From Gammaproteobacteria bacterium (GTDB lineage Bacteria; Pseudomonadota; Gammaproteobacteria; JBCCGL01), in assembly GCA_965277715.1 (NCBI GenBank), contig OZ255836.1:2720001-2784000 (forward strand): a stretch of DNA of 64,000 nucleotides. The letters are read 5' to 3'. Each line of letters opens with the position of its first letter. Positions within the stretch are counted from its first letter, which is position 1. Positions 3,987-62,805 of this stretch are shown here, piece by piece. Position numbers and translations under genes: made by a program. Under the pieces are notes generated by a model. The model was not told the DNA's origin, ran no database searches, and saw only the letters and a program-made list of their open reading frames with translations.

Positions 3987-4052
3987 TAAGCCTCTCTGCC
4001 TCTATAAAGCTATCCGGGTCGGAGTGCGCGAACAAATAAAGGGTACTGACCC

Positions 4053-5581
4053 CAATACCGCTACCTCAGCCTGGTGAAGAACTAAAATAACGTTAAAAGT
4101 CATATAGATGGGTAACGTTAGGTTTCCTTTTGAAGTATCCTTGTAAGCGACAAAACACACAAGTACTTCGCCAAAAAACCTAACGCTGACCTATTCTATG
4201 AAATTCGCTATCCGACAGCAAATTAAAACGATCAAATGTGTTTTTTTTCAGTTAAACACAGGAGACTTTAATAATTTACTCTGTTCCAAGCGTCTAAACG
4301 ACCTAAGCGAACTATCGGGCAGCTATCGAGACCGGGTATTCACCCCACTTGTTACACTGCGTTTATTTCTCTGGCAGGTGTTAAGTGATAATGGCAGTTG
4401 TAAAGAAACAGTCGCCCGTCTGCTAGTTGATCGTTTACAGGAAAACCTGCTTCCAAGTTCTTTTAATAGCGGTCCTTACTGTAAAGCCCGTCAACGTTTA
4501 TCTCTGTCGTGGGTACTTCAGGAGGTACGTTCAATCGGTTCAACGTTACATGCCAGAGCAGGTAAAATTTGGACATGGAAAGGGTATAATGTGGTGCTTG
4601 TGGATGGAACCACTGTTCTCATGCCTGATACCCAGAAAAATCAACATAAATACCCCCAGCAACAGACTCAAAAACCGGGTTTAGGTTTTCCTATTGCTCG
4701 AATAGTCGGACTCATTTCTTTAAGTTCTGGCGCTATTATTGATTATGCAATGGGAGAGTATCAAGGAAAGGGAACAGGGGAAATGTCATTATTCAGTACC
4801 CTGATGACGTCATTAACCGCCAATGATCTGTTACTGGCAGACCGCTATTACTGTACTTATGCTGTCTTAGCGGCTCTACAATCGAAAGGGGTTGCATTCG
4901 TCTCAATGAATCACGCACAAAAGAAAGCGGATTACAAAACAGGGTTAACGCTTGGTGCAAAAGATCATCTTATCGAGTGGGAAAAACCTAAAAGAAAACC
5001 GGTTTGGATGTCGCAATCAGACTTTGATCTATTGCCGAAAACCCTGACAGTTCGAGAATTTTCAGTGGATGGGACAGTCTATGTTAGCACTTTGTTGGAG
5101 GTTGATACTTACCCTAAGAAAGAGCTTTCAACACTGTATAAGGAACGTTGGAAAGTTGAATTGGATTTTCGTACAATTAAAACAGATTTGAAAATGGATA
5201 TGTTGCGATGCCATTCACCCGAGATGGTTGAAAAAGAAATAGCAACAACCTTTATGGCTTATAACCTGATTCGGGGTAGCATGGCAGAGTCAGCAAAAAC
5301 AGAGGGTGAAATAGCACGTCAAATAAGTTTTAAGGCAACGGTACAGCTACTGGGTATTGCTCATATTAAATTCATCCATTCAACATCCAGTATGATACAA
5401 AAAGCGTACACTTCCTTATTAAGGATAATCGCTTCAACGTTAATTGGCAGGAGAAAACGATCACCCCAACCAAGGGCAATTAAACGACGACCAAAAGCCT
5501 ACCCACTGTTAACTGAACCTCGTATCAAGGCCTCTCAGAGACTAAAAGATTCATTGGGTTAAACCTGAGGTAGCGGTATTG
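4053..5581 (+). mobile_element. IS4-family insertion sequence (IS-A)
   Basis: Perfect 17-bp TIR CAATACCGCTACCTCAG (4053-4069 / 5565-5581) and 11-bp direct repeat GGTACTGACCC (4042-4052 / 5582-5592). Confidence 0.93.
4198..5562 (+). CDS. IS4-family DDE transposase, apparently intact
   Basis: LVDGT, LADRYY and YKERWKVELDFRTIK (YREK signature). Confidence 0.93.
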   Translation: MKFAIRQQIKTIKCVFFQLNTGDFNNLLCSKRLNDLSELSGSYRDRVFTPLVTLRLFLWQVLSDNGSCKETVARLLVDRLQENLLPSSFNSGPYCKARQRLSLSWVLQEVRSIGSTLHARAGKIWTWKGYNVVLVDGTTVLMPDTQKNQHKYPQQQTQKPGLGFPIARIVGLISLSSGAIIDYAMGEYQGKGTGEMSLFSTLMTSLTANDLLLADRYYCTYAVLAALQSKGVAFVSMNHAQKKADYKTGLTLGAKDHLIEWEKPKRKPVWMSQSDFDLLPKTLTVREFSVDGTVYVSTLLEVDTYPKKELSTLYKERWKVELDFRTIKTDLKMDMLRCHSPEMVEKEIATTFMAYNLIRGSMAESAKTEGEIARQISFKATVQLLGIAHIKFIHSTSSMIQKAYTSLLRIIASTLIGRRKRSPQPRAIKRRPKAYPLLTEPRIKASQRLKDSLG

Positions 5582-5672
5582 GGTACTGACCCCAATACCC
5601 TGACCCCAATACCTGAAAAGGTATACCAAGATGATATACTCCGCGCCGCTTTGAATAACCCGGATTGATTGT

Positions 5673-32371: not shown

Positions 32372-32375
32372 CTAA

Positions 32376-32528
32376 GGAACGTGCACGAAATAATTCCCCT
32401 TTTTATAAGATTATTTAAATAATGTGCCATGCGTTAATAATCCTAAATTCCGCAGTTGAATCGTAGCGAGGGCGTCTAAGGTGAATCGATATATTGACTA
32501 ATCCCGAAATTTATTTCGTGCACATTCC
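32376..32528. mobile_element. 153-bp MITE
   Basis: TIRs GGAACGTGCACGAAATAA / TTATTTCGTGCACATTCC (1 mismatch), with TAA on both flanks; non-coding. Confidence 0.75.
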
Positions 32529-32545
32529 TAAAGGGCTGTATTCCC

Positions 32546-46037: not shown

Positions 46038-46308
46038 CAGGAATATGCCATAGAACGGCTATGTAAATCAGCACAAATGCTGAGCTGCTTAAAGACCAAT
46101 GAACACTAGCTATGCTTAGGAACGTGCACGAAATAACTTCCGGGGTTTGCAAATGTATCGATTTACCTTATAGCTGAGTTGGCTGAGTGTGTCATTAACA
46201 CATAGCCTATTATTTAAATAACATTATAAGAGTGGACATTATTTTGTGTGTGTTCCATAACACCCTACGCTGCCCACATAGAAAAAGAGTAGACGTTAGC
46301 TCACCTTT

Positions 46309-47889: not shown

Positions 47890-49044
47890 ATGCTACCAAA
47901 AAACAATATCGATATTACCTCGACTCAATACTTTCGCCCCACGTCATTATCAATTGAGTCACTCTTCTACGGTCTACAAGCGTTAAAAAATCCTCCCCCT
48001 CTTTTCAAGCAATTGGGGCTTGATCTGCATTATTTTGAGTTTTCTTCACCTGAAAGTGACAACAAAGACAGGAGGCCACAGGGTGTTACCAAGAAGGGGG
48101 ACTACATCATCAATAGCTGGTATTTTACAAATGATGCTACTTCAACCAATAAAGATAAGTGTAAATTAACAATCGCAGATACCAATACTAATGCCTATGT
48201 TAATGTTGTACCCGTTGAGCGTAATTCAGCAGGAAAATATGAGGGTATCACGTCTCATGCTGGAGGTATCACTATAGTGGGAGACTATTTATACATGGTG
48301 GATAAGATTGGCTCGGATAAGGGAATGAGAGTATTTTCCCTCAATAACATTCTCGAGGTAAACAAAAACACTCAGGATATTGCAACTGATGCCAGTAGCT
48401 TTATACTCGACTATAGTTATATGCTGCCAGAAGTGGGAGTGTTTACTGTCGATACACCGAGTAATGTTAATTTGAGTTATTTGTCTGTGGCGATGATTGA
48501 TAATACATCTTATTTCTTAACGGGTAATTTTTATAAAAGCGACGAATCTAAATACAACGCAGGGGGGAAATCTATGATGTGGCTATTTCCAATAAACACG
48601 AACGGGCCATCTTTTCCCTTTATCGATACAACTGCCAAGACTTATCAAATTGAACCGATGTATCCATCTGGTGAACATAAAAATAAGACAGTTTCTCGTA
48701 TTCAAGGAGCGACGATCACTGATAATGTTTTAATGATCAGCCGCTCTTGGGCTGATAAAAGTTATCAGTTGATTGGAATTGAATATAGTAGGGATATTCG
48801 TAAATTAGATGACTATAAGACTGATAAAATATCAGAATATTTTGATGGAACAGATACTTCACCTGAAAATAATAATGCTAAAAACTGGCTAGTAGGTTGT
48901 GAGAATCTACATCATGATAGGGAGACGGGTAATCTTTATACAGTAACAGAATTTAAGCCAGATTATAGATCGTCACCTGGAAGAAGAAATTATTATGTAG
49001 ACTATGATTCTGTAAAAGCGTTAATTAATCAACCGCCTTCCTAG
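47890..49044 (+). CDS. Low-GC hypothetical protein, possibly a beta-propeller
   Basis: 384 aa, beta-rich, with RPQGVT, HAGGI, IQGA and CENL motifs. Confidence 0.75.
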   Translation: MLPKNNIDITSTQYFRPTSLSIESLFYGLQALKNPPPLFKQLGLDLHYFEFSSPESDNKDRRPQGVTKKGDYIINSWYFTNDATSTNKDKCKLTIADTNTNAYVNVVPVERNSAGKYEGITSHAGGITIVGDYLYMVDKIGSDKGMRVFSLNNILEVNKNTQDIATDASSFILDYSYMLPEVGVFTVDTPSNVNLSYLSVAMIDNTSYFLTGNFYKSDESKYNAGGKSMMWLFPINTNGPSFPFIDTTAKTYQIEPMYPSGEHKNKTVSRIQGATITDNVLMISRSWADKSYQLIGIEYSRDIRKLDDYKTDKISEYFDGTDTSPENNNAKNWLVGCENLHHDRETGNLYTVTEFKPDYRSSPGRRNYYVDYDSVKALINQPPS

Positions 49045-49056
49045 GCAAATCGATAA

Positions 49057-49091
49057 AAATAAACGAGGCCATAATATGGCCTCGTTTATTT
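49057..49091. terminator. Intrinsic terminator-like hairpin
   Basis: AAATAAACGAGGCCAT-AAT-ATGGCCTCGTTTATTT, perfect 16-bp stem. Confidence 0.75.
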
Positions 49092-49149
49092 GATCCACGG
49101 GTGAGTGAGAAAAGAAAAAAGAAGGCAAGCATATTTTAAACGCCAGGTT

Positions 49150-49362
49150 ATTTTCATCAACACTTGATTCGTCAAAATACTCCTCTTCAGGTTTCCAACA
49201 ATTGTCGAGGTATTCCCATCGCCTTAATCCAAATGCTTCAGCAATTTTCCTGAGCCAGCGACCATCTATCTCTCGACACAGGTACATACATATCGAGCGT
49301 GTTAACGGCGTCTGCTGTTCGCCACGTTTGGCGTTTATTAAAACCTCTCTGATCAACTTCAT
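49150..49362 (-). pseudogene. C-terminal HTH remnant of a second RAYT-like transposase
   Basis: RSICMYLCREIDGRWLRKIAEAFGL aligns by eye with RKLAMYYCQRFGDMSLKAITQHFGL of 52177-53145. Boundaries approximate. Confidence 0.6.
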
Positions 49363-49422
49363 TTTCTTCGCTGTGCGTGTAATTAGAACGGTATTGGTAC
49401 CTCTACGGTAATAACTTGTCCA

Positions 49423-49637
49423 TTAAGCGCGCAAATAGTTATCAATAAACGCCTGCAAAGCCAGCTCAGCCCCCTTAGGTACATGCAAGCCTTTTTTACT
49501 GCGCCGCCACAGAATGTCATCCGCGCTGGATGCCCATTCGTGCTCGATCAGGTATTCCACTTCGCGTTGGTAGAGTGGCCCACCAAAATGCTGGCCCAGT
49601 TCCGCCATTGTGTTGGCATCGCCAATCAGTGTGTGAA
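49423..49637 (-). pseudogene. Glycerol-3-phosphate dehydrogenase (GlpD) C-terminal fragment
   Basis: LGQHFGGPLYQREVEYLIEHEWASSADDILWRRSKKGL. Confidence 0.82.
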
Positions 49638-49655
49638 GTGAAAGGGGTCATATAT

Positions 49656-51215
49656 CAATGGCACTAAGTTAAGCGGTTTTAGCGGGTAAAATAAACGAAA
49701 AAATAACTGTAATAAACCCAACAAAACAGGCTGAAATGTTATAATTTTGTATGAAAAATACAACCTTATTTCTACCCGGATTTAACATCCAAACACTCCG
49801 CAAAACACCCCGTTCAGCCATTCAAATCTTGCACGATAAGATAGCAAAAATACGTCACAAATCACTGAGTGAACTACCTGTTTTTCTTGGCGATATCATA
49901 CCCACGAATATTCTTAAACCGAATGATTGTGGTGTGAATAGTCGTCGACGTATTTTCAGTAAAGAAAATACTTTCTGGTTGTTTTTTTAACAAATAATAA
50001 ACGCCGATGGTGGCTGTAAAGAAGTCGTTAGACAACTGCAAAATGTCGCCCACAACCAAGGCATTCCCATACCTTCATCATCCACCTCCGCCTATTGCCA
50101 AGCACGTAAAAAACTACCCATGGACGATCTTAAAAACGTATTTTCAGGGACGTGTCGATTATCGACACCTCAACCCAAAGCGCTCCAAGGTCGACCGGTT
50201 ATCGTTGCCGATGGGACAGGCCTATCCATGCCCGATACGCCCGCGAATCAACAAACTTACCCACAACCAAAATCACAAACACAGGGATGCGGATTTCCTC
50301 AAGCACGGCTTTTAGCTTGTTTTAATCTTTATAGCGGTTTAATTCTGAGCTATGCACTAGGAAATAAAAAAAGTCATGAGCTAAGACTTTTAGAAGAACA
50401 ATGGGATACCTTCAATGAAGGTGACATTTTCTTAGGTGATAAAGGTTTTTGCAGCTTCTACGATATTGACTGCCTCTCTCGACGAACGGTTGACAGTGTC
50501 GTTACATTGGCGCGGAGAACGCCCAGCACTGCCTCCCAGGCCAAAAAGAAGATAGCCGATAATGACCTTCATATTGAATGGCAAAAACCTAAACACACAA
50601 AAGCGACCCGTTACACAAAAGAGCAGCATAGCGACCTTCCAAAGACCTTAACTTTACGACAAATACACGTCAGTATTGTACGAAAAGGATTTAGGACGAA
50701 CCATTTTTATATCATCACGACACTACTTGATGCTCAGCAATATCCCGCTATAGAAATTATCGACCTCTATGCACAGCGCTGGAATGTGGAACTGTATTTT
50801 CGCAATATTAAAACCACCATGGGTATGGATATATTACGCTGTAAAACACCTGATATGGTTCGTAAGGAAATCATCATGCACATGATTGTTTACAACACGA
50901 TCAGGCACATCATGTGTGTCGCTTCATACCGACATGACACACCGGTTGATCGGCTAAGTCTTAAAGGTGTTTTGCAAACACTCCGACAAAGCACTTCATC
51001 ACTTGGTAGTGGGCAGAGTCCAGCACAAAAAAGACGGCAATATCTTGATTATTTATATGCAGCGATTGCGGATGACCGTGTGCTTCATCGACCTTTTAGG
51101 TTTGAACCAAGAGTGGTAAAAAGGCGACCTAAACCACGGGCATTAATGACTCGACCAAGGAACGTTTTAAAAACTGAATATTGGCAAGCTAAAGCGGCTT
51201 AACTTAGTGCCATTG
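49656..51215 (+). mobile_element. IS4-family insertion sequence (IS-B)
   Basis: 19-bp TIR CAATGGCACTAAGTTAAGC; 11-bp direct repeat GGGTCATATAT (49645-49655 / 51216-51226). Confidence 0.93.
49751..51202 (+). pseudogene. IS4 transposase with a single in-frame stop
   Basis: ORFs 49751 and 50120 share a frame, interrupted by TAA at 49988-49990. Motifs VADGT, LGDKGF, YAQRWNVELYFRNIK. Confidence 0.88.
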
Positions 51216-51221
51216 GGGTCA

Positions 51222-52170
51222 TATATGGACCCGCAGTTAAATTCAACAATTTTTTAATCGTTCATTCATTTTTTTAGCGTTCAGAGCAGACACAGTAAAT
51301 AAGGTTAGCAGTCATATATCCGGCTTCTCGATAGGACGGATTGTATTTGTTTATCCGTCCAGAGCCATAATGGGAACCGTGCTCAGACACCTCATCAAGC
51401 AATCGGTCTGTGAAGACCATGACCCCCTCCAGGTTCTGTCTGAGCCGGTTTAACCTGTTATACCCTTTACTGCTCTTTCGCTACCTCGTGGTAAGAAATC
51501 TTCAACGACGTTATTAAACTGTTTTATGCACGTAAGTTGTATTATTAGCCGCTACCGCCCAGCTAATTCTGGCGAGCTTATTGGCCAATGCCACCGCCGC
51601 CACACAATGGCCCCGACGTGCTTTGACACGACAGGCCCAACGACTTAGCCCATCATCGTGTTTAGGCATTCGACTTAATGCCGCTTGCGCCCCCTGTATC
51701 AACAAAGTGCGCACGTGTTCGTCCCCGCGTTTACTGATACCTTTGAGTTGCGTTTTGCCCCCCGAACTATATTGACGAGGAATGAGACCCAAAAAGGCGG
51801 AAAACTCACGCCCGTTTTTATAAAAACCCGGATCGCCCATTGCTGTAAACAAGGCAGTGGCGACCAGAGGCCCTACACCCGGCAGTGTTTTTAATTGCTA
51901 GCAGCGCTCATGCTGGTTACTCAACTGGGTTAACCGTTTTGTGTAGTGTGTTACGCGTTTATCAATCTCCACTCGTTCATCATACAAAGCACTGAACACT
52001 TCACGTGCTGTGCTTGAAAAATATTTTTGGCTAGATCAATACCCAATCGGGTGATATTCTCGTTCATGGACTCGCTCCTACCTTTATTAGGTGATAATAG
52101 ATTGGTTGTGTTACCGCTCAATCTTGGCACATTGTGATGCCGATTCAAAGGGAGCGGGTCCATCCCATCA
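51222..52170 (-). mobile_element. IS1111-type (IS110 family) element, copy 1, internally deleted
   Basis: Sub-terminal IRs ATGGACCCGC (51225-51234 / 52154-52163). GIDLAK start, DEDD domain mostly deleted, premature TAG, and C-terminal PRQYSSGGK...ANKLAR. Confidence 0.9.
51225..51513 (-). ncRNA. Putative bridge/seek RNA region of IS1111 copy 1
   Basis: Near-identical reverse complement of 61197-61483. Confidence 0.65.
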
Positions 52171-52176
52171 GGCAAG

Positions 52177-53145
52177 TTATTTACTATTTAACTGATTTTC
52201 AATTTGATGCATCACCTCTTTAAGTTCTCCCTTGTCCAGCTCTTTCTTGACGTGAGCTATTGCACTCGACACACCACCAGGGTGACTTAACCCAAAATGT
52301 TGAGTAATCGCCTTTAACGACATATCACCAAACCGCTGGCAGTAATACATGGCCAATTTGCGGGGAGTGTTCGCGCTACCTCCCTTACCTTGACTATCCG
52401 AAATACTGCCTTCACTCACTCGGCAACAATTTGCCACCGTTTTTACTATCACACTGCTGGCTACCTTTTCCCGCAATTGGGGCCGCACATCAACGCCACT
52501 CTGGCTTTCTTTGTACTCGGCCAACTGTGAGCGGAACACCTTGTCACCTAACACCGTCGATAGGTTATTTTTGCCGTAAAAGCGCTGTATATCCTCATCA
52601 ATCCCTTGGTCTACATAGTCTGTGTAACATTGACAGTCGTTTTTCACCGGTAAACAGGCATAAACACGATCACGACACAACCAAGCAGGGTTCAATGCTC
52701 TTCCTATGTAAGCCGGGTAACTAGACCAGGGATAGTTCTTTAGCGATTGAACCAGAGGTCGTTTAGTCTCAATGGGGTTTCTATGTATATAGCGAGACAG
52801 GGGTAATAGATACGCATCTTCATCGACATTGATGGCTTTAAATCGCCCTCTAAACTGAGGGCCATCCGTTTTTTTAAGGCGGTTATAACGCTGTGTATAG
52901 ACACCATCGATATGCTGCATAATGCGACTGAGGTTAGCATCAGGTGTTTCCAGCAGTAGGTGGTAGTGATTGCCCATTAGGCAATAAGCGTGAATCACGG
53001 CGTGAAAACGCTCTGCGGCTTCGGTCAATGTGGCGAGAAACGCTTGGTAGTAAGCTTCGCTATGAAAAACCGTCTTACGCTCCCGACCACGGTTTATTAT
53101 ATGGTAGAAGGCGTTTTCATATTCTATGCGGTGAGGTCTTGGCAT
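52177..53145 (-). CDS. RAYT-like HUH/Y1 transposase with a C-terminal DnaA-like HTH
   Basis: FYHIINRG, CLMGNHYHLL (HUH), GRFK, RYIHRNP (catalytic Tyr), YPWSSY, and C-terminal RKLAMYY...SLKAITQHFG. Confidence 0.9.
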   Translation of the reverse strand: MPRPHRIEYENAFYHIINRGRERKTVFHSEAYYQAFLATLTEAAERFHAVIHAYCLMGNHYHLLLETPDANLSRIMQHIDGVYTQRYNRLKKTDGPQFRGRFKAINVDEDAYLLPLSRYIHRNPIETKRPLVQSLKNYPWSSYPAYIGRALNPAWLCRDRVYACLPVKNDCQCYTDYVDQGIDEDIQRFYGKNNLSTVLGDKVFRSQLAEYKESQSGVDVRPQLREKVASSVIVKTVANCCRVSEGSISDSQGKGGSANTPRKLAMYYCQRFGDMSLKAITQHFGLSHPGGVSSAIAHVKKELDKGELKEVMHQIENQLNSK

Positions 53146-53297
53146 GGGGTGATATTGACATAATCTATGATAAATAACTAGCCTGACCCCTTTTCCCTAT
53201 ATGGTAGAAGGCGTTTTCATATTCTATGCGGTGAGGTCTTGGCATGGGGTGATATTGACATAATCTATGATAAATAACTAGCCTGACCCCTTTTCCC
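53098..53297 (+). repeat. Exact 2 x 100-bp tandem duplication of the RAYT 5' end and terminal motif
   Basis: 53098-53197 equals 53198-53297; each unit ends AAATAACTAGCCTGACCCCTTTTCCC. Confidence 0.92.
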
Positions 53298-53329
53298 TTT
53301 TTCCCTTTCTTTCCTTATGTTTTTACAAT

Positions 53330-53354
53330 AGCCAGCCTTCTATGAAGGCTGGCT
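53330..53354 (-). terminator. Hairpin terminator after the adhesin gene
   Basis: AGCCAGCCTTC-TAT-GAAGGCTGGCT. Confidence 0.65.
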
Positions 53355-53377
53355 TTATACGCTTTTCTAGGATGAAA

Positions 53378-56300
53378 TCAAAACCACGCTTTTAGAACGT
53401 GTTTTTTACTGACGCGCGTCTTAATACAAGGAAAACGCAGCCACAACGACAGTAGTAACAGCGTTAATAGACCAGTCAGTTCGATAATAGTCATGGCGCC
53501 ACCACCACCACCGCCGCCGCTGCTGCTGCTAGTGTCACTACCACTACCAACATTTCCGGGGTCAGCTATTTGACCATTGGTGGCATTATCCGCATCGTTG
53601 GGGCCACCATCAGTAATCGTTAGGCGTAAGCAGTTATTGCCTACCACTAGATTTGACTGCCAGCTGGCATCATCATAATCCGGGCAAGTACTCGTACCTA
53701 TACTCATCGTCGATGCCAATGCATCAGTGGCACCATTGCTATTGACTGTGGTGGTATCAAAATTTACCCAGCCCGAACGACCAGAATTAGTCAGTGCTAT
53801 GGGTAAATATTTTCGATAAACCGGGTTTATCGGTAGGGGCACACTGAGTGGAATAACCACATTGACCTGTTGACCGGCTACCGGCAGATTGAGCACTTCA
53901 AAGTCCACAATATCGCCGACACGCGATACGGTATCAGCAGGAAGAATTTCAGACCCAGAAGCATTCTGTGCCTGTGGTGTCACTGCCGCATTAAAACCCG
54001 TCGCGGCGCTTGAATTCGTGACAGCCGAGGCAAAGGCAATATTACCCAGACGTAAACTGACACCTGGCTCAGAGGTCACAAAACGAGACTCAGCCGTATC
54101 AATAGGCAGCAACTGGCTATTGTTATCCAGACGTTCAAGAAAGTTGGGCACCCGGTCACCGTCATCATCAGCCAGGCCCTCTGCCATATCGTCTTCTCCA
54201 TCGTTATCCCGATCCGAGCTGTTAGTCAAACCAGGGTCAGCCAATACCCTAAGCTGCAACTGCGTGCGTACTGTGGCAACACTATCCGAGACAGATAAGA
54301 TAACCACGGCAATACCTGCCTGGGCCGGAGCCGTAGCCATAACCGATGGAGTGTTGGTGTTCGGTACAACAATACCTGTGGAGGCACTCCAGTCATAGGT
54401 CAGGGTGTCGCCATTGGTATCTGTGGCATTGGCGTTGATAGTAATGGTACTCCCTGCCACAACAGATGAAACTGCTTTACTGCTGTTATTGATTGTGGAC
54501 GTTACTGTTAGTTCTGTTTGTGGTGCAATATTGTCGCTGATAACATTAATAGTCTGGGTACTATTAGCTCCGGAGGTAACCCGTTCAATAACCGGGTTTA
54601 TATTGTTATCGTTTTGTACAAATACCGCAGCGCTATTGTTCACCTGCAAAGTAATACTGCCAGTATTGGCACCAATGGCCAGGTTGATACGACTGCTCAA
54701 CTGATTTGGCGCAAAGCTGAAAGTGCCAGTACTGCTTACGGTATTGGTTGAGTTGCCGGTACTATTGGCTGTTATCCTATAGGGCACTGTCAAGGTGGAA
54801 GTACGATCAACCGGGTTACCGTTGAGGGTCAGAACCACGCTCGCCGTACCATTGGTGGACGTCGTGATATTTTCCGAATTAAAGGATACTCTCGGTATCA
54901 CATTAATAACCTGGGTTGCACCACCACCTAATGGCCAGTTGCCATTACTGTCTACGGCTATCCACCACAATGAGTGGGCGCCCGCTAACAGTAACAGGTT
55001 ATTGTTATTATCACGTCGCACAGCTTGACAAGCGGATGCAAAATTAGCGGGTAGAACTGTGCCAGTACACCGACCCGTACGAAAATAGGCTGAGGCAGGC
55101 ACAGTCAGTGTCGCTGAGGTTGACCCATTACTGTTGCTGGCAGTAGCAGCTGGCACGGCCGTGAAAACCGCCGTCGATATGACATTAACCGGTGTACTCA
55201 GGCTAATCACTGGGCGACTGTCACCAACCGACACCGTACTGTGATTGGAGATAGCAGGGTTTAAACCAATGCCCACTTCGACGACATCGGGTATACCATT
55301 ATTATTGGTATCGGTAGTTTGAGTCACATCAGCGCCATTGCCAATAAAGGTTTCCACATCATCGCTAATACCATCGGCATCACTGTCTGTAGCGCTACTA
55401 TCTGCGCTTTGTAGACTATCCGCGAGGCCGTCATTATCGACATCTACTGCCGACAATGTTCTGAACGTCGTGCTTGTGTAGTTGCTGCGATTGTTCTGCG
55501 TATCTGCCACAACAACGCTAATAGTATGAGAGTGGCCTGGCACCAAGTCACTAAAAGTGGCGCTGGTCGCTGATACTGACAATGTTTGGATACTATTGGT
55601 TATGGTATCGGTTACCGTCACCGTATAAGTCACTGGATTGGCATCGGTCGCAGCGTTCCAATTGATAGCCACCCCATTGGGTGTCGCTGTCACTGTGAGC
55701 GTAGTATCTGCGGGTAAGACGGGCGCATCTCTATCTGCTGGGGCGATATTAACGGTGATGCTAGGGGTGGTGGTCAAGTTGCCGCCATTGCCATCATTGC
55801 CACTGATAGTAATACTTGTGGCGGTTGTATTGTTTAGCGCCGTTGTATAACTCACATTGGACGTGGTATCCAAAAAGGTATTGAGATTGGCTGGGCTACC
55901 GGCAAGGATCAAGCCAGCTGTTCCCGAACCGCTGACAGTCACACCACCTGAGGTGCCATTACCCGATGCGGCGGCTAAGGTGCCTGAGGCAGCCGTCAAG
56001 GTAATGGTTAGGGCATCGCCATCAATATCGGCAAAGGTAGTGGCAGATAAATTGATAGTCGTCGCTACATTTTCAATCACCATTACCGTTGCAGGCGTAC
56101 CGGTGATGGTGGGTGCATCATTCGCTGGAGTGATATTAACGGTGATGCCAGGGTTGGTGGTCAAGTCACCACTATTGCCATCATTGCCAGTGATAGTAAT
56201 GCTTGTGGCGGCTGTATTGTTTAGCGCCGTTGTATAGGCCACATTGGTGGTGGTATCTAAAAAAGTATTGAGATTGGCTGGGCTACCGGCAAGGATCAAG

Positions 56301-58219
56301 CCAGCTGTTCCCGAACCGCTGACAGTCACGCCTGCGGCGGTGCCATTGCCCGATGCGGTGGCTAAGGTGCCCGAAGCAGCCGTCAAGGTGATGGTCAGGG
56401 TATCGCCATCGACATCGGCAAAGGTACTGGCAGATAAATCGATATCAGTGGCTATATCTTCAGTCACCGTGACCATTGCGGGCGTACCGGTGATGGTGGG
56501 TGCATCATTCGCTGGAGTGATATTAACGGTGATGCCAGGGTTGGTGGTCAAGTTGCCGCCATTGCCATCATTGCCACTGATAGTAATACTTGTGGCGGTT
56601 GTATTGTTTAGCGCCGTTGTATAACTCACATTGGTGGTGGTATCTAAAAAAGTATTGAGATTGGCTGGGCTACCGGCAAGTACCAGAGCAGCTGTTCCCG
56701 AATCGCTGACAGTCACACCACCTGAGGTGCCATTACCCGATGCGGCGGCTAAGGTGCCTGAGGCAGCCGTCAAGGTGATGGTTAGGGCATCGCCATCAAT
56801 ATCGGCAAAGGTGCTGGTAGATAAATCGATACTAGTCGCTACATCTTCAGCCACCGTTACCGTTGCAGGCGTACCGGTGATGGTGGGTGCATCATTCGCT
56901 GGGGTGATATTAACGGTGATGCCAGGGTTGGTGGTCAAGTCACCACTATTGCCATCATTGCCAGTGATAGTAATGCTTGTGGCAGTTGTATTGTTTAGCG
57001 CCGTGGTATAGGTCACATTGGTGGTGGTATCTAAAAAAGTATTGAGGTTGGCTGGGCTACCGGCAAGGATCAAGCTAGCTGTTCCCGAACCGCTAGCAGT
57101 TACGCCGCCTGAGGTGCCATTGCCCGATGCGGTGGCTAAGGTGCCCGAAGCAGCCGTCAAGGTGATGGTTAGGGTATCGCCATCGACATCGGCAAAGGTG
57201 CTGGCAGATAAATCGACATCAGTGGCTACATCTTCAGTCACCGTTACCATTGCGGGCGTACCGGTGATGGTGGGTGCATCATTCACTGCGGTGATATTAA
57301 CGGTGATACCAGGGGTGGTAGTCAAGTTGCCACCATTACCATCACCACCACTGATAGTAATGCTTGTGGCGGTTGTATTGTTTAGCGCCGTTGTATAACT
57401 CACATTGGTGGTGGTATCTAAAAAAGTATTGAGATTGGCTGGGCTACCGGCAAGTACCAGAGCAGCTGTTCCCGAACCGCTGACAGTCACGCCTGCGGCG
57501 GTGCCATTACCTGATGCGGTGGCCAGAGTGCCTGAGGCAGCAGTCAGGGTCGCAGTTATAGTATTGTTTTCAGCATCAGCAAAAGTGCTGGCAGATAAGT
57601 CGATACTGGTGGCTACATCTTCAGTCACCGTTACCGACGCAGGCACACTCGTTATGGTTGGCGGCGTATTAGATACAAGCGCCCTGATATCGGATATGGT
57701 AAAACCGCTTAATACAGCGTTAACACTATCATTCGATCCCTGGAATGAGAGCGAAACCGAGAATTGGGTGATATTATCAAATCTACCTGCTGTAGTATCC
57801 AGGCTGACTACGTTTGACAATGAACTCGAACCGACCATAAAGGTTTCTTGTGCACCATTACTGGCATTAATCACAACATTCATGGTACGTGTACTTCCAA
57901 AATCGAAGGCCCGAATCTGATCCAGGTCAAACGTCGCAAGATCAGTATTATCTGCGGTAAATGTCCAAGTGTGCTCACTTATGCTGATATTAGTCTCTCT
58001 TGCCAAGCCATTAACAAAACCCGAGTTAGTCGAGCTGAAAGCTGCCATATCTCCTACTGACGTAAGACCAATGGTAAACCCGTCGTTCGTATTGCCGTTC
58101 GTGTTATTGGAATAGTAGGCTGCATCAGTATTGTGAACAGTGGGTATGGTGGCAAACGCACTGGTGCTCAAACTTGCCAAGAGCACACTAAAGGTAAGGA
58201 AACAGGGTTTTTTATACAT
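53378..58219 (-). CDS. Large repetitive surface protein/adhesin with a GlyGly-CTERM anchor
   Basis: Signal peptide; five 129-aa cadherin/Ig-like repeats (NDAPTI...FADxDGD); FN3-like domain; DxDxDG Ca-binding motifs; choice-of-anchor-U-like TITDGGPNDAD; GGGGGGG plus TM helix and basic tail. Confidence 0.87.
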   Translation of the reverse strand: MYKKPCFLTFSVLLASLSTSAFATIPTVHNTDAAYYSNNTNGNTNDGFTIGLTSVGDMAAFSSTNSGFVNGLARETNISISEHTWTFTADNTDLATFDLDQIRAFDFGSTRTMNVVINASNGAQETFMVGSSSLSNVVSLDTTAGRFDNITQFSVSLSFQGSNDSVNAVLSGFTISDIRALVSNTPPTITSVPASVTVTEDVATSIDLSASTFADAENNTITATLTAASGTLATASGNGTAAGVTVSGSGTAALVLAGSPANLNTFLDTTTNVSYTTALNNTTATSITISGGDGNGGNLTTTPGITVNITAVNDAPTITGTPAMVTVTEDVATDVDLSASTFADVDGDTLTITLTAASGTLATASGNGTSGGVTASGSGTASLILAGSPANLNTFLDTTTNVTYTTALNNTTATSITITGNDGNSGDLTTNPGITVNITPANDAPTITGTPATVTVAEDVATSIDLSTSTFADIDGDALTITLTAASGTLAAASGNGTSGGVTVSDSGTAALVLAGSPANLNTFLDTTTNVSYTTALNNTTATSITISGNDGNGGNLTTNPGITVNITPANDAPTITGTPAMVTVTEDIATDIDLSASTFADVDGDTLTITLTAASGTLATASGNGTAAGVTVSGSGTAGLILAGSPANLNTFLDTTTNVAYTTALNNTAATSITITGNDGNSGDLTTNPGITVNITPANDAPTITGTPATVMVIENVATTINLSATTFADIDGDALTITLTAASGTLAAASGNGTSGGVTVSGSGTAGLILAGSPANLNTFLDTTSNVSYTTALNNTTATSITISGNDGNGGNLTTTPSITVNIAPADRDAPVLPADTTLTVTATPNGVAINWNAATDANPVTYTVTVTDTITNSIQTLSVSATSATFSDLVPGHSHTISVVVADTQNNRSNYTSTTFRTLSAVDVDNDGLADSLQSADSSATDSDADGISDDVETFIGNGADVTQTTDTNNNGIPDVVEVGIGLNPAISNHSTVSVGDSRPVISLSTPVNVISTAVFTAVPAATASNSNGSTSATLTVPASAYFRTGRCTGTVLPANFASACQAVRRDNNNNLLLLAGAHSLWWIAVDSNGNWPLGGGATQVINVIPRVSFNSENITTSTNGTASVVLTLNGNPVDRTSTLTVPYRITANSTGNSTNTVSSTGTFSFAPNQLSSRINLAIGANTGSITLQVNNSAAVFVQNDNNINPVIERVTSGANSTQTINVISDNIAPQTELTVTSTINNSSKAVSSVVAGSTITINANATDTNGDTLTYDWSASTGIVVPNTNTPSVMATAPAQAGIAVVILSVSDSVATVRTQLQLRVLADPGLTNSSDRDNDGEDDMAEGLADDDGDRVPNFLERLDNNSQLLPIDTAESRFVTSEPGVSLRLGNIAFASAVTNSSAATGFNAAVTPQAQNASGSEILPADTVSRVGDIVDFEVLNLPVAGQQVNVVIPLSVPLPINPVYRKYLPIALTNSGRSGWVNFDTTTVNSNGATDALASTMSIGTSTCPDYDDASWQSNLVVGNNCLRLTITDGGPNDADNATNGQIADPGNVGSGSDTSSSSGGGGGGGAMTIIELTGLLTLLLLSLWLRFPCIKTRVSKKHVLKAWF
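55745..57670 (-). repeat. Five tandem 387-bp intragenic repeats
   Basis: Equivalent positions at 55857, 56244, 56631, 57018 and 57405 (period 387). Array ends approximate. Confidence 0.9.
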
Positions 58220-58339
58220 AGAGTCTGGCTCGTAATAGTTTTTTAAAATCGTTAAGGTCGCAGCAAGCTAGACTAGTTTTTCGATAATGTAAACTTAAAT
58301 AATGCTTTTTATGAAAGATGAATGAAAGGGGTCAGGCAA

Positions 58340-59905
58340 GAATGGCACTTCCTTAAGCTCTAAGTACATGAAAAATATGGAAGTATTTTCATTGTAAATG
58401 ACCTATTTCTGTTTTTTGGGATGGCCATATTTTTTAACAACACTTCTGGCCACGTTCCTTGGCTGCATCAATAAAGGATATGGTTTGGGTCTTCGTTTAA
58501 CCACTCTTGGTTCAATACGCCCCGGTCGATTACCCACACAGTTTTCTGCAATCAACGCACATAGCGCCAACACCTTATCACTACCCAGAGGGCTACTGCC
58601 TTTCTGATAACGATACGCTACCCAAATTTGTAACGTATGCTTAAAACTTATCTGTCGAGGCAGTATGTCCACTAGTAAGGCAGATTGCGCCATTAATAAG
58701 CGAATAAGGTTGTAAGCTAATATGTGTACCCACATTTCCTTCTCAACCATTTCTGGCGTCTTACAACGGAAGGTGTGCATCTTCATTGTCGTTTTTATAT
58801 GGCGTAAATCAAGTTCGACATGCCAGCGTTCTTTGTAGAGCTGTTTAAGCGCCTCTTTAGACGCCGATTTAACTGATAACAACGTTGTCACCAACAGTTT
58901 TTTACCCACTTTCAGTTCACGTATAACCACTTCATCAGCAGCCGCTTCATAGGCTTCTTCGCTCATCCACTCTGGTCTCTTCTTGGGCTTTGTATAACAA
59001 ATCAGGTGATCCTTCGATCCAAGCCTTTTGCCTTCTCGAAAATCTGTGGATTTACGCCGCGCACCATGCGGCTCAAATACACCGTCTACTCCTTGCTCTA
59101 TAAGGTTTGCTAGAAAAAAATAACCCGCAAAATAGGCATCACCCACCACAATATCACCCGGTTTAAGCGCATTTTGTATTTTTCTCAATAACGTTTGCTC
59201 ATCCGCTCCCTTACCTTTAAAAGGACCCATTGCCGCATCGAGAACACCACCACTGGCTAAACAAATAATTCCTACCCAGCGACAAAGAGGAAAACCGATC
59301 CCCACTTGCTGGCCTGACTGTTGCGGATAAACTACCTGATTTTCAGGCGTATCGGGCATTGTCACAGTGGTGCCGTCAACCAATTTAACTGAACGCCCTT
59401 GCCAGTGCCAGTGACTGGCCGCTTCATTCGCCACACACTCGCCTGTACAACGGGCAAGCCCTGAGACGAGGGGGGTTGGCAGCCTTTGTCGCGCTTTACA
59501 ATAACTCCCTGTATACGTATTACTCACTGATAAACCTTCACTTAATCGCTGTACAGCGAGTGTGTTGACAGCTTGTTGGCAGGACTGATCTGCACTCATT
59601 GTTTGGTATAAAAACAGCGATAAGGTGTCTAGAGGAGGATAGCGACGCGCTCGAAAATCCGGTTGTAATTCTTCCAGTTTCGTAAGTAACTGAGAGGATG
59701 TCAGCAAGTGATAAAAACTCAATGCATCCGAGGATTGAGCTCGGCTTTTGATGCGACGTTGAAGAATGTTGACTTTTACATTACTCTGCATGATGGCTGG
59801 TTCCTGTGGGATAAAGGGTATTTGTGTTGGCAATAAATAACCTACCATAGAACCAGCTTTTTTTGTAATTACTTCAAATACTTACAGCTTAAGGAAGTGC
59901 CATTC
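58340..59905 (-). mobile_element. IS4-family insertion sequence (IS-C)
   Basis: 19-bp TIR GAATGGCACTTCCTTAAGC at both ends; the flanks are not direct repeats. Confidence 0.92.
58403..59791 (-). CDS. IS4-family DDE transposase, apparently intact
   Basis: LVDGT, VGDAYF, YKERWHVELDLRHIK; start at 59791 or 59848. Confidence 0.92.
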   Translation of the reverse strand: MQSNVKVNILQRRIKSRAQSSDALSFYHLLTSSQLLTKLEELQPDFRARRYPPLDTLSLFLYQTMSADQSCQQAVNTLAVQRLSEGLSVSNTYTGSYCKARQRLPTPLVSGLARCTGECVANEAASHWHWQGRSVKLVDGTTVTMPDTPENQVVYPQQSGQQVGIGFPLCRWVGIICLASGGVLDAAMGPFKGKGADEQTLLRKIQNALKPGDIVVGDAYFAGYFFLANLIEQGVDGVFEPHGARRKSTDFREGKRLGSKDHLICYTKPKKRPEWMSEEAYEAAADEVVIRELKVGKKLLVTTLLSVKSASKEALKQLYKERWHVELDLRHIKTTMKMHTFRCKTPEMVEKEMWVHILAYNLIRLLMAQSALLVDILPRQISFKHTLQIWVAYRYQKGSSPLGSDKVLALCALIAENCVGNRPGRIEPRVVKRRPKPYPLLMQPRNVARSVVKKYGHPKKQK

Positions 59906-59916
59906 TAGCCTGACCC

Positions 59917-60124
59917 GAATGGCACTTCCTTAAGCTGTAAGTATTTGAAAGTATTGGTACTACATGCTTGGTTCAGATAACTTGGCATATGGTTCTTGAA
60001 AGCAATATTTGTAAAACTATCCCGGTTATCATTGGCGGCAACTTTCAAAATATCATTTTTTTTCTTAGAAATAATAAATAAACTCTTTACTATCAGTTGC
60101 TTACGTCTTAAGGAAGTGCCATTC
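59917..60124. mobile_element. 208-bp MITE-like derivative of IS-C
   Basis: Both ends read GAATGGCACTTCCTTAAG inward; no transposase. Confidence 0.82.
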
Positions 60125-60312
60125 GGGTCAATGCAGTTATTTCCTATACTTCTTGCTGGAAATCACTGTTTTTATCCGTATTAGTCGTTGTATGGTGAAT
60201 AATAAGCCTGATGGGATGGACCCGCTCCCTTTGAATCGGCATCACAATGTGCCAAGATTGAGCGGTAACACAACCAATCTATTATCACCTAATAAAAGGT
60301 AGGAGCGAGTCC

Positions 60313-61196
60313 ATGAACGAGAATATCACCCGATTGGGTATTGATCTAGCCAAAACTATTTTTCAAGTGTGTGGTGCTAATAAACACGGTAAAGTGGTGT
60401 TTAATAAAAAAACTTAAACGCGATCAGCTACCGTCTTATATCGCCAATGTACCGGCCTGTGAGGTGGTGATGGAAGCGTGTGCGACGTCCAGTTATTGGT
60501 CGCAGGTTTTCACACGCTACGGCCATACAGTCAAACTCATTAACCCAGCCTATGTACGCCCTTACGTTAAAACAAAGAAGAACGATGCAGCGGATGCAGA
60601 GGCGCTGTGTGAAGCAGCCTCACGTCCGAGTATGCGATTTGTTCAGCCCAAAACACCCGACCAACAAGACAGCCAATTACTCCACCGGGTGCGCAGTCGG
60701 CTAGTGTCAAAACGGACGAGTTTAAGTAATCAGATAAGAGGGTTACTGGGTGAGTATGGGCTGATTATTCCGGTGGGTATTCACCACGTTCACCAGCACT
60801 TGCCTGCGCTTTTAGAGGATGCTGAAAACGGGTGTAGGGCCTCTGGTCGCCACTGCTTTGTTTGTAGCAATGGGTGATCCGGGTTTTTATAAAAATGGGC
60901 GTGAGTTTTCCGCCTTTTTGGGTCTCGTTCCTCGTCAATATAGTTCGGGGGGCAAAACACAACTCAAAGGTATCAGTAAACGCGGAGACGAACACGTGCG
61001 CACTTTGTTGATACAGGGGGCGCAAGCGGCATTAAGTCGAATGCCTAAACACGATGATGGGCTAAGTCGTTGGGCCTGTCGTGTCAAAGCACGTCGGGGC
61101 CATTGTATGGCGGCGGTGGCATTGGCCAATAAGCTCGCCAGAATTAGCTGGGCGGTAGCGGCTAATAATACAACTTACGTGCATAAAACGGCTTAA
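60313..61196 (+). pseudogene. IS110 recombinase pseudogene
   Basis: MNENITRLGIDLAK start; frameshift in an A-run near 60405-60412; VMEAC and KNDAADAEA motifs; out-of-frame deletion near 60830; then GVGP...SSGGK...ANKLAR. Confidence 0.88.
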
Positions 61197-61483
61197 TAAC
61201 GTCGTTGAAGATTTCTTACCACGAGGTAGCGAAAGAGCAGTAAAGGGTATAACAGGTTAAACCGGCTCAGACAGAACCTGGAGGGGTCATGGTCTTCACA
61301 GACCGATTGCTTGATGAGGTGTCTGAGCACGGTTCCCATTATGGCTCTGGACGGATAAACAAATACGATCCGTCCTATCGAGAAGCCGGATATATGACTG
61401 CTAACCTTATTTACTGTGTCTGCTCTGAACGCTAAAAAATGAATAAACGATTAAAAAATTGTTGAATTTAACTGCGGGTCCAT
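61197..61483 (+). ncRNA. Putative bridge/seek RNA region of IS1111 copy 2
   Basis: Two stem-closed internal loops matching the target (GGGGTCA 61283-61289; TTGCTTGA 61307-61314) and the donor junction (TCCCATTAT 61334-61342; ATATATGA 61390-61397). Confidence 0.7.
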
Positions 61484-61608
61484 ATATGACCCCTTTTCTT
61501 TTCTTTCCCTTTTCCTTTCCAGATTAAAATACCCTCGATACTATTTTTTATTTCCAGAATTTTTTAGTGCCTTTATATAATGCCTGTCCTTAATCATTTC
61601 TTTTAGAC

Positions 61609-62805
61609 CTATTTTTTACTCTTGAACTCACCGTCAGACGAAGTTTTGACCTGCCCAGCGACTATTACCTCAATATCTCCATTGTCACCGGATGAACCAT
61701 CATTGCCTGACGATCCAGAGTTTCCTGGTGAGCCGTTAGACCCGACTCTTCCCGCTGACTTGCAAGGTCCACTAAGTGCTCCCTCAGCGCCTCCAGTTCC
61801 TTCATTACCGCCTGAACCACCCTTCCCATGAGAACCAGGCAAACCACCTTTTGTCACAATGGTTACCGAGCCTGATATTGATTGGGCTTCAACAAATGCT
61901 GGCCCACCATTACCGCCATTTCCTGCATTTCCACCTGCGCCTCCATCTCCTCCGTTTCCACCGTCGCCACCTTTTTTAGGGCCTTCTTGACAATCACCGA
62001 CATAGCCGATACTAATTCCTGCCAAAGACGGTTGTCCCTGACCACCATTTCCCCCATTACCACCTTTGCCTCCTCGGCCACCATTTCCGCCATTTTGGCC
62101 TCTGTTAGATATGATAATGTTTGCCGAGATATCGTTGGCAACTATCTTCACCTTTCCAGCCGATTGCCCCGATTGGCCCGAAGTACCATTATTTCCGTTT
62201 TCACCATTGCTCCCATCTTGGCCTGAGCCACCATTGCCATGCCTACCTTTCCTTCCATCTTCTACATTACCACCGTTTCCTGCTCGGCCCGGGGAATACG
62301 ACCTAATTTGTGCGCTGCCACCAATCAAGTTGTTCACTTTTAGTGAAACATCGAACCCGTTGGTAATCACTTCGCCTGTAAATTCATAATCAGAGGCGGG
62401 GTCGTTAACAATAAGTGGCGCATCAAGAGAAATGGCTGAAATGGTTTTAATCGGGGCCTTTACGATAATTAATTGTTTTTTTTGTATTGACTTGCTTCCG
62501 TCGCTAGCTATGACTTTTATTTCAAACTGACCAGGGACAGGAAAACTGAAATCGTATGTATTTAGGTCGCCTTCTGTTTGAAGTTCATTGTCCAGATACC
62601 AAGAGATTTTTATTTCGTCATTATCAGGATCAAAGGCGTTTGCATTTGCTACCACCCTCAGTGGTGCATCTCCTTTTGTCGCGCTTAACTCTATGCTTAA
62701 CTGTGGTGGCTCGTTGATGAGGCCTCGAATAATATCTGGCGCCAACCCAATCAATGCAGCAAGTACTCCGCCTCCGATTAATACACCGATGATGATTTTC
62801 TTCAT
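61609..62805 (-). CDS. Membrane-anchored PKD-domain protein with a collagen-like Gly-X-Y region
   Basis: N-terminal TM, GDAPLRV...DPDND...SW PKD-like domain, and long GxxGxxG runs. Confidence 0.8.
   Translation of the reverse strand: MKKIIIGVLIGGGVLAALIGLAPDIIRGLINEPPQLSIELSATKGDAPLRVVANANAFDPDNDEIKISWYLDNELQTEGDLNTYDFSFPVPGQFEIKVIASDGSKSIQKKQLIIVKAPIKTISAISLDAPLIVNDPASDYEFTGEVITNGFDVSLKVNNLIGGSAQIRSYSPGRAGNGGNVEDGRKGRHGNGGSGQDGSNGENGNNGTSGQSGQSAGKVKIVANDISANIIISNRGQNGGNGGRGGKGGNGGNGGQGQPSLAGISIGYVGDCQEGPKKGGDGGNGGDGGAGGNAGNGGNGGPAFVEAQSISGSVTIVTKGGLPGSHGKGGSGGNEGTGGAEGALSGPCKSAGRVGSNGSPGNSGSSGNDGSSGDNGDIEVIVAGQVKTSSDGEFKSKK

Follow-up and report, generated by a model that had tools for sequence, protein, structure and literature searches.

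Background

Among the insertion sequences (ISs) of the IS4 family, IS231A makes an 11-bp duplication at the target GGGNNNNNCCC, that is, GGG-N5-CCC (PMC2577343, Table 1, citing Hallet et al. 1994). For the IS4 subgroup, Table 1 of PMC2266710 lists -AATR--------WTW as the end signature, 1400-1650 bp as the size and 10-13 bp as the length of the direct repeats, with a DDE/YREK transposase coded by a single open reading frame (ORF); extracts of the same paper credit some members with a 'spectacular apparent insertion specificity', described for target arms. In excerpt, PMC1525189 names ISRm22 (IS4 family) and ISPa11, ISPpu9 and ISPpu10 (IS110 family) as elements that target repetitive extragenic palindromic (REP) sequences. 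Here we examine a 64,000-nt stretch of a gammaproteobacterial genome (the window; contig OZ255836.1, positions 2,720,001 to 2,784,000), in which three ISs, here called IS-A, IS-B and IS-C, and a 208-bp MITE (miniature inverted-repeat transposable element) are flanked by 11-mers that all start with GGGTCA. We consider it probable that this shared GGGTCA is one half-site of a target, GGGTCWGACCC, for which the DDE transposases of the IS4 subgroup have an intrinsic preference, as opposed to a local specialisation.

Four elements with flanking 11-mers in one register

The elements concerned are the following (coordinates are those of the window).

4053..5581, + strand: IS-A, an intact IS4-subgroup element with terminal inverted repeat (TIR) C-AATACCGCTACCTCAG and a transposase ORF at 4198-5562 (454 aa)
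49656..51215, + strand: IS-B, an IS4-subgroup element with TIR CAATGGCACTAAGTTAAGC, recognised from its inverted repeat in the window, Pfam DDE_Tnp_1 and NF033592
58340..59905, - strand: IS-C, an intact IS4-subgroup element with TIR GAATGGCACTTCCTTAAGC and a transposase ORF at 58403-59848 (481 aa)
59917..60124, no strand assigned: the 208-bp MITE with IS-C-type ends, recognised from inverted and direct repeats in the window

A first-pass annotation, made from the letters alone, had described these as three different IS4-family elements plus a MITE, and the family models bear this out. All three transposases score above the cut-off of 115 bits for the IS4-family model NF033592 (IS-A 215, IS-B 168, IS-C 216 bits), and those of IS-B and IS-C also match Pfam DDE_Tnp_1. 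The transposases are only 34-44% identical in pairwise comparison (IS-A and IS-C 44%), so these are three distinct ISs. Each has the single-ORF IS4-type DDE transposase of the subgroup, with one in-frame stop in IS-B (a TAA at 49988-49990 in the translation of frame 49751-51202); the ORF list holds no ORF of at least 80 aa for the MITE. Sizes of 1529, 1560 and 1566 bp for IS-A, IS-B and IS-C respectively all lie within the range of the IS4 subgroup. The end signature of the subgroup fits fully in IS-B (CAATGGCACTAAGTTA) and IS-C (GAATGGCACTTCCTTA); the end of IS-A (CAATACCGCTACCTCA) fits at AATR, but has TCA at the WTW positions. Direct target repeats are 11-13 bp in IS-A and 11 bp in IS-B, and there is none at this copy of IS-C. 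With 7 occurrences of the TIR pattern in the window where 0.12 would be expected, chance is excluded.

The 11-mers beside these elements are given below, R4 being one copy of a local repeat, R, which is treated further on.

4042..4052 and 5582-5592, no strand assigned: target duplication of IS-A, GGTACTGACCC (other strand GGGTCAGTACC), from a repeat search and reading of the sequence
49645..49655 and 51216-51226, no strand assigned: direct target duplication of IS-B, GGGTCATATAT, from reading of the sequence
58329-58339, no strand assigned: left flank of IS-C, GGGTCAGGCAA, within the left part of R4
59906..59916, no strand assigned: 11-bp spacer TAGCCTGACCC between the right end of IS-C and the left end of the MITE, the reverse complement of GGGTCAGGCTA
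60125-60135, no strand assigned: right flank of the MITE, GGGTCAATGCA, in the right part of R4 (the left flank is TAGCCTGACCC)

All five 11-mers named in the first-pass annotation are present, and each starts with GGGTCA in one register. The register is common because no base separates any of the 11-mers from the start of the TIR (N-AATGGCAC or C-AATACC). At IS-A the direct repeat is exact over 11-13 bp (at 13 bp, 4041-4053 and 5581-5593), its length being ambiguous since the outermost C/G can be assigned either to the repeat or to the TIR; the duplication fits GGGTCWGACCC at 9 of 11 positions. The duplication of IS-B straddles a junction, with 6 bp from repeat copy R1 and 5 bp from the right end of an IS1111-type element (copy 1, below). 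Of the four targets named in the first-pass annotation, those of IS-C and the MITE are not target duplications, the flanks there being inverted; direct duplications are confined to IS-A and IS-B.

A symmetric target consensus in distant relatives

Two collections of relatives carry the main result. The first, a species scan, took one genome per species and the shared terminal-repeat pattern, and yielded at least 126 loci; by assembly label, the records shown come from Proteobacteria, Planctomycetota, Verrucomicrobiota, Cyanobacteria, Bacteroidota and others, and among the matches listed DNA identity to the window elements is at most ~68%. In the 130 unique ends from the matches listed, the 11 bp outside the TIR (positions -11 to -1) give the consensus GGGTCWGACCC, preceded, further out, by a G and an A-rich arm. 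Of these ends, 16 have GGGTC at -11, 22 have GACCC at -5 and 36 of the 130 have at least one of the two; at any other offset within 40 nt neither motif occurs more than once. The second collection, an independent metagenome scan with the IS-C-type TIR, gave an identical consensus from 132 ends (GGGTC in 24, GACCC in 12, either in 36; at most 2 each at other offsets). In both sets the consensus, drawn from natural insertions, has GGG at positions 1-3 and CCC at 9-11 of an 11-bp target, as in IS231A. For IS231A itself, flanking A/T-rich bent DNA is said to matter as well, and its preferred natural sites are reportedly the ends of another transposon.

Complete elements tell the same story. Over both scans, 40 of 72 carry direct duplications of 11 bp whose copies show no more than one mismatch (a further count of clean 10-bp duplications gives 5/72). 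On average, these direct duplications agree with the consensus at 7.08 of the 11 positions, compared with 3.05 for background 11-mers from the same loci, and 65% of them score at least 7 of 11 as against 1.1% of the background. Individually they are also more self-complementary than random sequence (2.45 versus 1.25 of 5 pairs). Elements found via protein similarity, and hence not via the TIR, contributed 9 perfect 11-bp duplications, 7 of which match the consensus at 7 or more positions. The common TIR variants all show the preference, the consensus score being 6.8 for TAC, 6.45 for AAG and 5.7 for ACC. A likeness between the target arm and the TIR tip (AATGG) was considered and dropped, being present in the genome set and not in the metagenome set.

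Copies in the same organism or population were sought in public sequencing runs. Nine runs contain the stretch 57800-61600, and contigs from four of them, belonging to four studies, were compared with it; none of the listed contigs covers the whole stretch. Relative to unique flank, IS-C, the MITE and the IS1111-type element show a word depth ~6-11 times as high; as a sum over all contigs and not a copy number, this is a rough sign of multiple copies, and these elements are probably multi-copy. At the left boundary of IS-C the depth rises 6-11 fold (58308-58434), with loose ends running into unrelated flanks from 58340, and IS-C copies diverge exactly at 58340 and after 59905. Among the 24 loose ends listed (of 80), 12 adjoin an IS-C or MITE-type end, and 11 of these 12 have GGGTC or GACCC in register, the remaining one having TCAG only. 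Unoccupied sites are present as well: a version of the IS-A target, and R-type sites, among them a version of the right part of R4 (X7, 60153) that is one base off the right 11-mer of the MITE. A genome-wide lack of GGGTCA bias had been named in advance as fatal to the idea; the bias persists in the run contigs and in the 130 and 132 ends alike.

Relatives of IS-A itself are scarce. A class-level sample gave a match in 11 of 399 genomes, the best at 54% identity; this closest relative found, itself cut by a contig end, offers one end, with a poor flank match. The order of this best relative is represented by 3 genomes, and a search with the TIR pattern in the relative's own genome gave 1 match. 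In plasmids, 93 records matched, all below 60% identity, and none of the viral contigs searched held a relative.

A probable intrinsic preference of IS4-subgroup transposases

The cuts made by elements with ends N-AATGGCAC... or C-AATACC... are staggered by 11 bp. We propose that a transposase dimer would read the two half-sites of the target independently of each other. Perfect left and right half-sites together are found about as often as independence predicts (2 against 2.7 expected in one end set, 0 against 2.2 in the other). Insertion would duplicate the 11 bp and regenerate the preferred site on both sides, at which later insertions could stack; IS-B used the half-site that remained at the junction between R and the IS1111-type end. 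The first-pass annotation had envisaged an IS4 clade specialised for the local motif. In that form the idea is not supported: the bias is one half of a two-fold symmetric GGGTCWGACCC seen in assemblies that bear the labels of several phyla, and R is absent from 276 other loci. Given the match to the published IS231A target, IS-A, IS-B and IS-C most likely share their preference by descent.

Several observations weigh against this account. At IS-C and the MITE there are no direct duplications, and the right 11-mer of the MITE is unlike the left one at most positions; more generally, some non-duplicated flanks in short-read assemblies may be artefacts, a repeated element having been bridged by a chimeric join. 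The consensus describes a tendency and not a rule, since many clean duplications are without GGGTC (for instance GGTTGAGAATT and GATTATGAGGC), and one TIR group (AGC, 8 ends) scores just 4.25. The IS-A clade is barely sampled, so that its preference rests on its own site and one poorly matching end. Other copies were surveyed via relatives and run contigs, not as every genomic copy with both flanks. Finally, left and right ends were pooled, which makes the matrix symmetric by construction; that individual sites tend to be two-fold symmetric follows from base frequencies above 50% and from the self-complementarity of the duplications.

Repeated units beside element ends

Just beyond the right copy of the IS-A duplication, a 14-nt unit, CTGACCCCAATACC, occurs twice (window 5582-5620), each copy consisting of the target end fused with bases 1-7 of the IS-A terminal repeat. 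Both copies may be footprints of earlier insertions. Among 286 element ends from fetched loci with at least 130 nt of flank, 28 have a direct repeat of at least 7 nt, at a spacing of 7-22 nt, in the 40 nt beside the element (17 and 9 in control windows further out), and the repeated unit usually covers the A-rich arm and the first target half. As a general explanation, tandem 11-bp footprints of earlier insertions were rejected: the phase does not suit simple duplication plus excision, and the enrichment is modest.

Two further cases of site choice were seen among the relatives. In one genome (G118), the same 11-mer is the site of two copies of one element (L136 and L144), oppositely oriented; it is part of a 19-bp near-palindrome with arms similar to the tips of the element itself. 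In the metagenomes, a sub-family with the IS-C-type end lies nearly always beside GGGACACCATAC or its complement, the flanks being otherwise unrelated (L158, L165, L178, L193, L197, L200, L201, L217, L222, L243, L249 and L269); this points to a putatively very specific target or a host repeat.

Abutted elements and inverted flanks

IS-C and the MITE are spaced by exactly 11 bp, and the TIRs around this spacer are complementary at 33 of 33 positions; the abutted ends form a 77-nt near-perfect palindrome (59873-59949). Sub-threshold Rfam matches to microRNA precursors at ~59863-59983 are false positives on this palindrome. The flanks of IS-C, GGGTCAGGCAA and TAGCCTGACCC, are inverted relative to each other and match at 10 of 11 positions. 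An 11-bp abutment of two elements was found at one other locus. In the run contigs, one contig (X7) has a joint 59905>59917 without the 11-bp spacer, which may be an assembly fold-back at the palindrome; further joints are 59916>60186 (side 25) and 58259>58321.

Inverted flanks recur elsewhere. In 28 elements, the two flanks show more than two differences when compared in the 11-bp register. Five of these are clean 10-bp duplications, and in 4 of the 28 one flank is an inverted copy of the other, allowing up to two mismatches, where permuted partners give 0.35 on average (P = 0.0002). At IS-C and the MITE, the inverted flanks could stem from later rearrangement among the many copies residing in R repeats; recombination between copies might have mixed the flanks, or the 11-bp spacer might have flipped between the perfect 33-bp inverted ends. 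We think it rather unlikely that inverted flanks arise from a transposase-driven reaction at the regenerated palindromic targets (abutted ends attacking inside-out or intramolecularly, for example), as opposed to ordinary homologous recombination. If they did, a regenerated target would be a self-propagating hot spot of rearrangement.

The local repeat R and the Y1 transposase gene

The insertions of IS-B, IS-C and the MITE all lie in copies of R, a ~22-bp repeat containing GGGGTCAGGC / AAAGGGGTCAGGC that carries a perfect half-site and the A-rich arm. The exact word AAAGGGGTCA occurs 5 times in the window, always within 49641-61496, and TGACCCCTTT is confined to the same region (49.6-61.5 kb), the sole site of R in the window. 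Copies R1, R4 and R5 are split by insertions. Features of this region are as follows.

52177..53145, - strand: Y1 (IS200-like) transposase of 322 aa resembling REP-associated tyrosine transposases (RAYTs), with Pfam Y1_Tnp and Bac_DnaA_C (a C-terminal DnaA-type helix-turn-helix)
53172..53193, - strand: R2, unoccupied, AAATAACTAGCCTGACCCCTTT on the + strand, from reading of the sequence
53272-53293, no strand assigned: R3, identical to R2 and unoccupied, inside a 100-bp tandem duplication
58325..58339, + strand: left part of R4, including the left flank of IS-C, from reading of the sequence
60125..60144, + strand: right part of R4, including the right flank of the MITE, from reading of the sequence

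The 100-bp tandem duplication (53082-53281, 93% identical) takes in the initial codons of the Y1 gene together with the upstream region and R, and yields R2 and R3. With the insertions removed, the REPIN-like inverted doublet R4-R5 is 118 nt long and has a 13-bp terminal stem (z -4.9; 0 of 300 shuffles fold as well), in this one example. As judged from the copies in the window, R is REP/REPIN-like in arrangement. Between R3 and R4 lies an ORF of 1613 aa (53378-58219, - strand) with five 387-bp tandem repeats (55737-57584, 84-95% identical), which has no NCBIfam match at E <= 1e-10. Elsewhere in the window, repeat pairs at 32373-32531 and 46116-46259, inverted and direct and 76-95% identical, bracket ~13.6 kb with borders of lower G+C; this may be another mobile or recombined segment.

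This setting suggests a different explanation of the shared GGGTCA, namely that the IS4 elements are specialised for R, through its structure or through recruitment by the Y1 protein. There is something to recommend it: three of the insertions in the window lie in R copies beside a RAYT-like gene, the run contigs hold further occupied and empty R-like sites with other IS copies adjoining R-like arms, and an IS4-family element, ISRm22, has been reported in REPs in 10 of 10 copies (PMC1525189, Table 2). The RAYT itself, invoked by the first-pass annotation, stands in part: the Y1 gene is indeed bracketed by R1 and R2 as an inverted pair, as expected of a REP/RAYT arrangement, and its product matches Pfam Y1_Tnp, but on the RAYT model NF047646 it reaches 62.3 bits where the cut-off is 80 (its relatives in plasmids amount to three weak matches). 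R on its own does not fold (z from +0.97 to -1.31), and the site of IS-A, 45 kb away in a different sequence context, is not an R copy. The register-specific preference is found in 262 ends from assemblies labelled as many taxa, and R is absent from 276 other loci (527 kb), so that the IS4 preference elsewhere is independent of R. We therefore regard targeting by way of R or the Y1 protein as improbable, and retain an intrinsic half-site preference of the transposases.

IS1111-type copies on the same site

Two further elements of a different kind have used R.

51222..52170, - strand: IS1111-type copy 1, internally deleted, in R1, from inverted repeats compared with copy 2 and reading of the junctions
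60209..61486, + strand: IS1111-type copy 2, with a frameshifted DEDD transposase, in R5, from Pfam DEDD_Tnp_IS110 and Transposase_20

Both are inserted in R at GCC^TGACCCC, a point within the 11-bp stretch duplicated by the IS4 elements. The claim that IS1111 shares the site is thus upheld by the junctions of the two copies, and the overlap of two kinds of element, IS4 and IS1111-type, on one site is real; the 'safe harbour' that the first-pass annotation saw in it, a harmless landing site under selection, is a putative one. IS-B was inserted after copy 1, its site spanning the point where R1 and the IS1111 end meet. The assignment to IS1111 agrees with PF01548 and PF02371 on the two ORF fragments of the frameshifted gene of copy 2, and with 10-bp subterminal inverted repeats (ATGGACCCGC / GCGGGTCCAT) offset by 7 bp (left) and 3 bp (right). 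Downstream of the gene is a non-coding region of ~290 bp (61197-61486). Read by eye, it contains two candidate guide segments of a seekRNA: GGGGTCA at 61283-61289, the complement of the right target flank, and, at about 61383-61398, AAGCC with ATATATGAC after it. Rfam gave no IS1111 RNA family over 49000-62000.

Other explanations of the shared 11-mers

Might the four cases all go back to one local hot spot, through repeated hits or through copying by rearrangement, and so be uninformative on preference? The three 11-mers around IS-C and the MITE do come from R copies, IS-B lies at an R junction, and the region as a whole is a 12-kb nest of mobile elements. Against this, IS-A stands far outside the nest in another context, and the external data sets yield the same consensus; we consider such non-independence very unlikely to account for the pattern. 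That GGGTCA belongs to the elements, as part of longer terminal repeats, and not to target DNA is scarcely credible: the flanks of IS-C are inverted (a 44-nt inverted repeat, 91%), as are those of the MITE, and at one locus (L074) the 18-19 nt beyond both ends are inverted copies, but the direct 11-bp repeats of the 40 complete elements are of very different sequence, IS-C copies end exactly at the boundaries given above, and the repeats of IS-A and IS-B are direct.

Comparison with known systems

An intrinsic preference of this kind provides a testable target rule for a widespread group of ISs: an 11-bp GGGTCWGACCC with an outer G and an A-rich arm. Such a rule aids the calling of element boundaries and duplications in genome annotation, and accounts for IS4 elements being nested in REP-like repeats and at the ends of other mobile DNA. 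It also means that a preference read by protein (IS4) and a choice that is probably RNA-guided (IS1111) can overlap on a few bases with no need for co-adaptation. No new mechanism is revealed. Our literature searches found no published consensus for the IS4 subgroup, and neither GGGTCWGACCC nor GGGTCNGACCC; GGGTCWGACCC is absent from the text and text supplements of PMC2266710, the Figure 3 of which lay outside the search. The occurrence of GGGNNNNNCCC in PMC11893778 is an unrelated motif.

How, then, does this locus compare with the described systems? For the IS1111/seekRNA elements (PMC11187229), the likeness comprises the DEDD transposase, subterminal repeats offset by 7 and 3 bp, the downstream non-coding region and one fixed insertion point without duplication; in contrast to that system, both copies here are broken, and their seekRNA is putative. 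As in the REP-targeting ISs described in PMC1525189, IS4-family and IS110/IS1111-type elements insert in a short repeat accompanied by a Y1 transposase, but R is not itself a palindrome, and the IS4 preference seen at this locus does not depend on the repeat. With the IS4 subgroup, as far as the extracts of PMC2266710 describe it, the elements agree in ends, size, repeat length and transposase, the specificity there being described for target arms.

The closest parallel is IS231A, which, according to the table in PMC2577343, has the same 11-bp duplication and palindromic GGG-N5-CCC target as our consensus. IS231A belongs to another subgroup, IS231, and has ends CAT..., and the present consensus adds the inner bases TC-W-GA and is derived from natural insertions, not from an assay. 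The observation at this locus is thus real and far beyond chance, and is mostly explained by a known trait of the IS4 family, that of IS231A: the target architecture was already known and is here extended and sharpened for the IS4 subgroup. What is new is the refined consensus and its breadth across taxa, the stacking at regenerated targets, the recurrence of inverted flanks, and a small nest in which IS4, IS1111-type and Y1 elements have one repeat in common.

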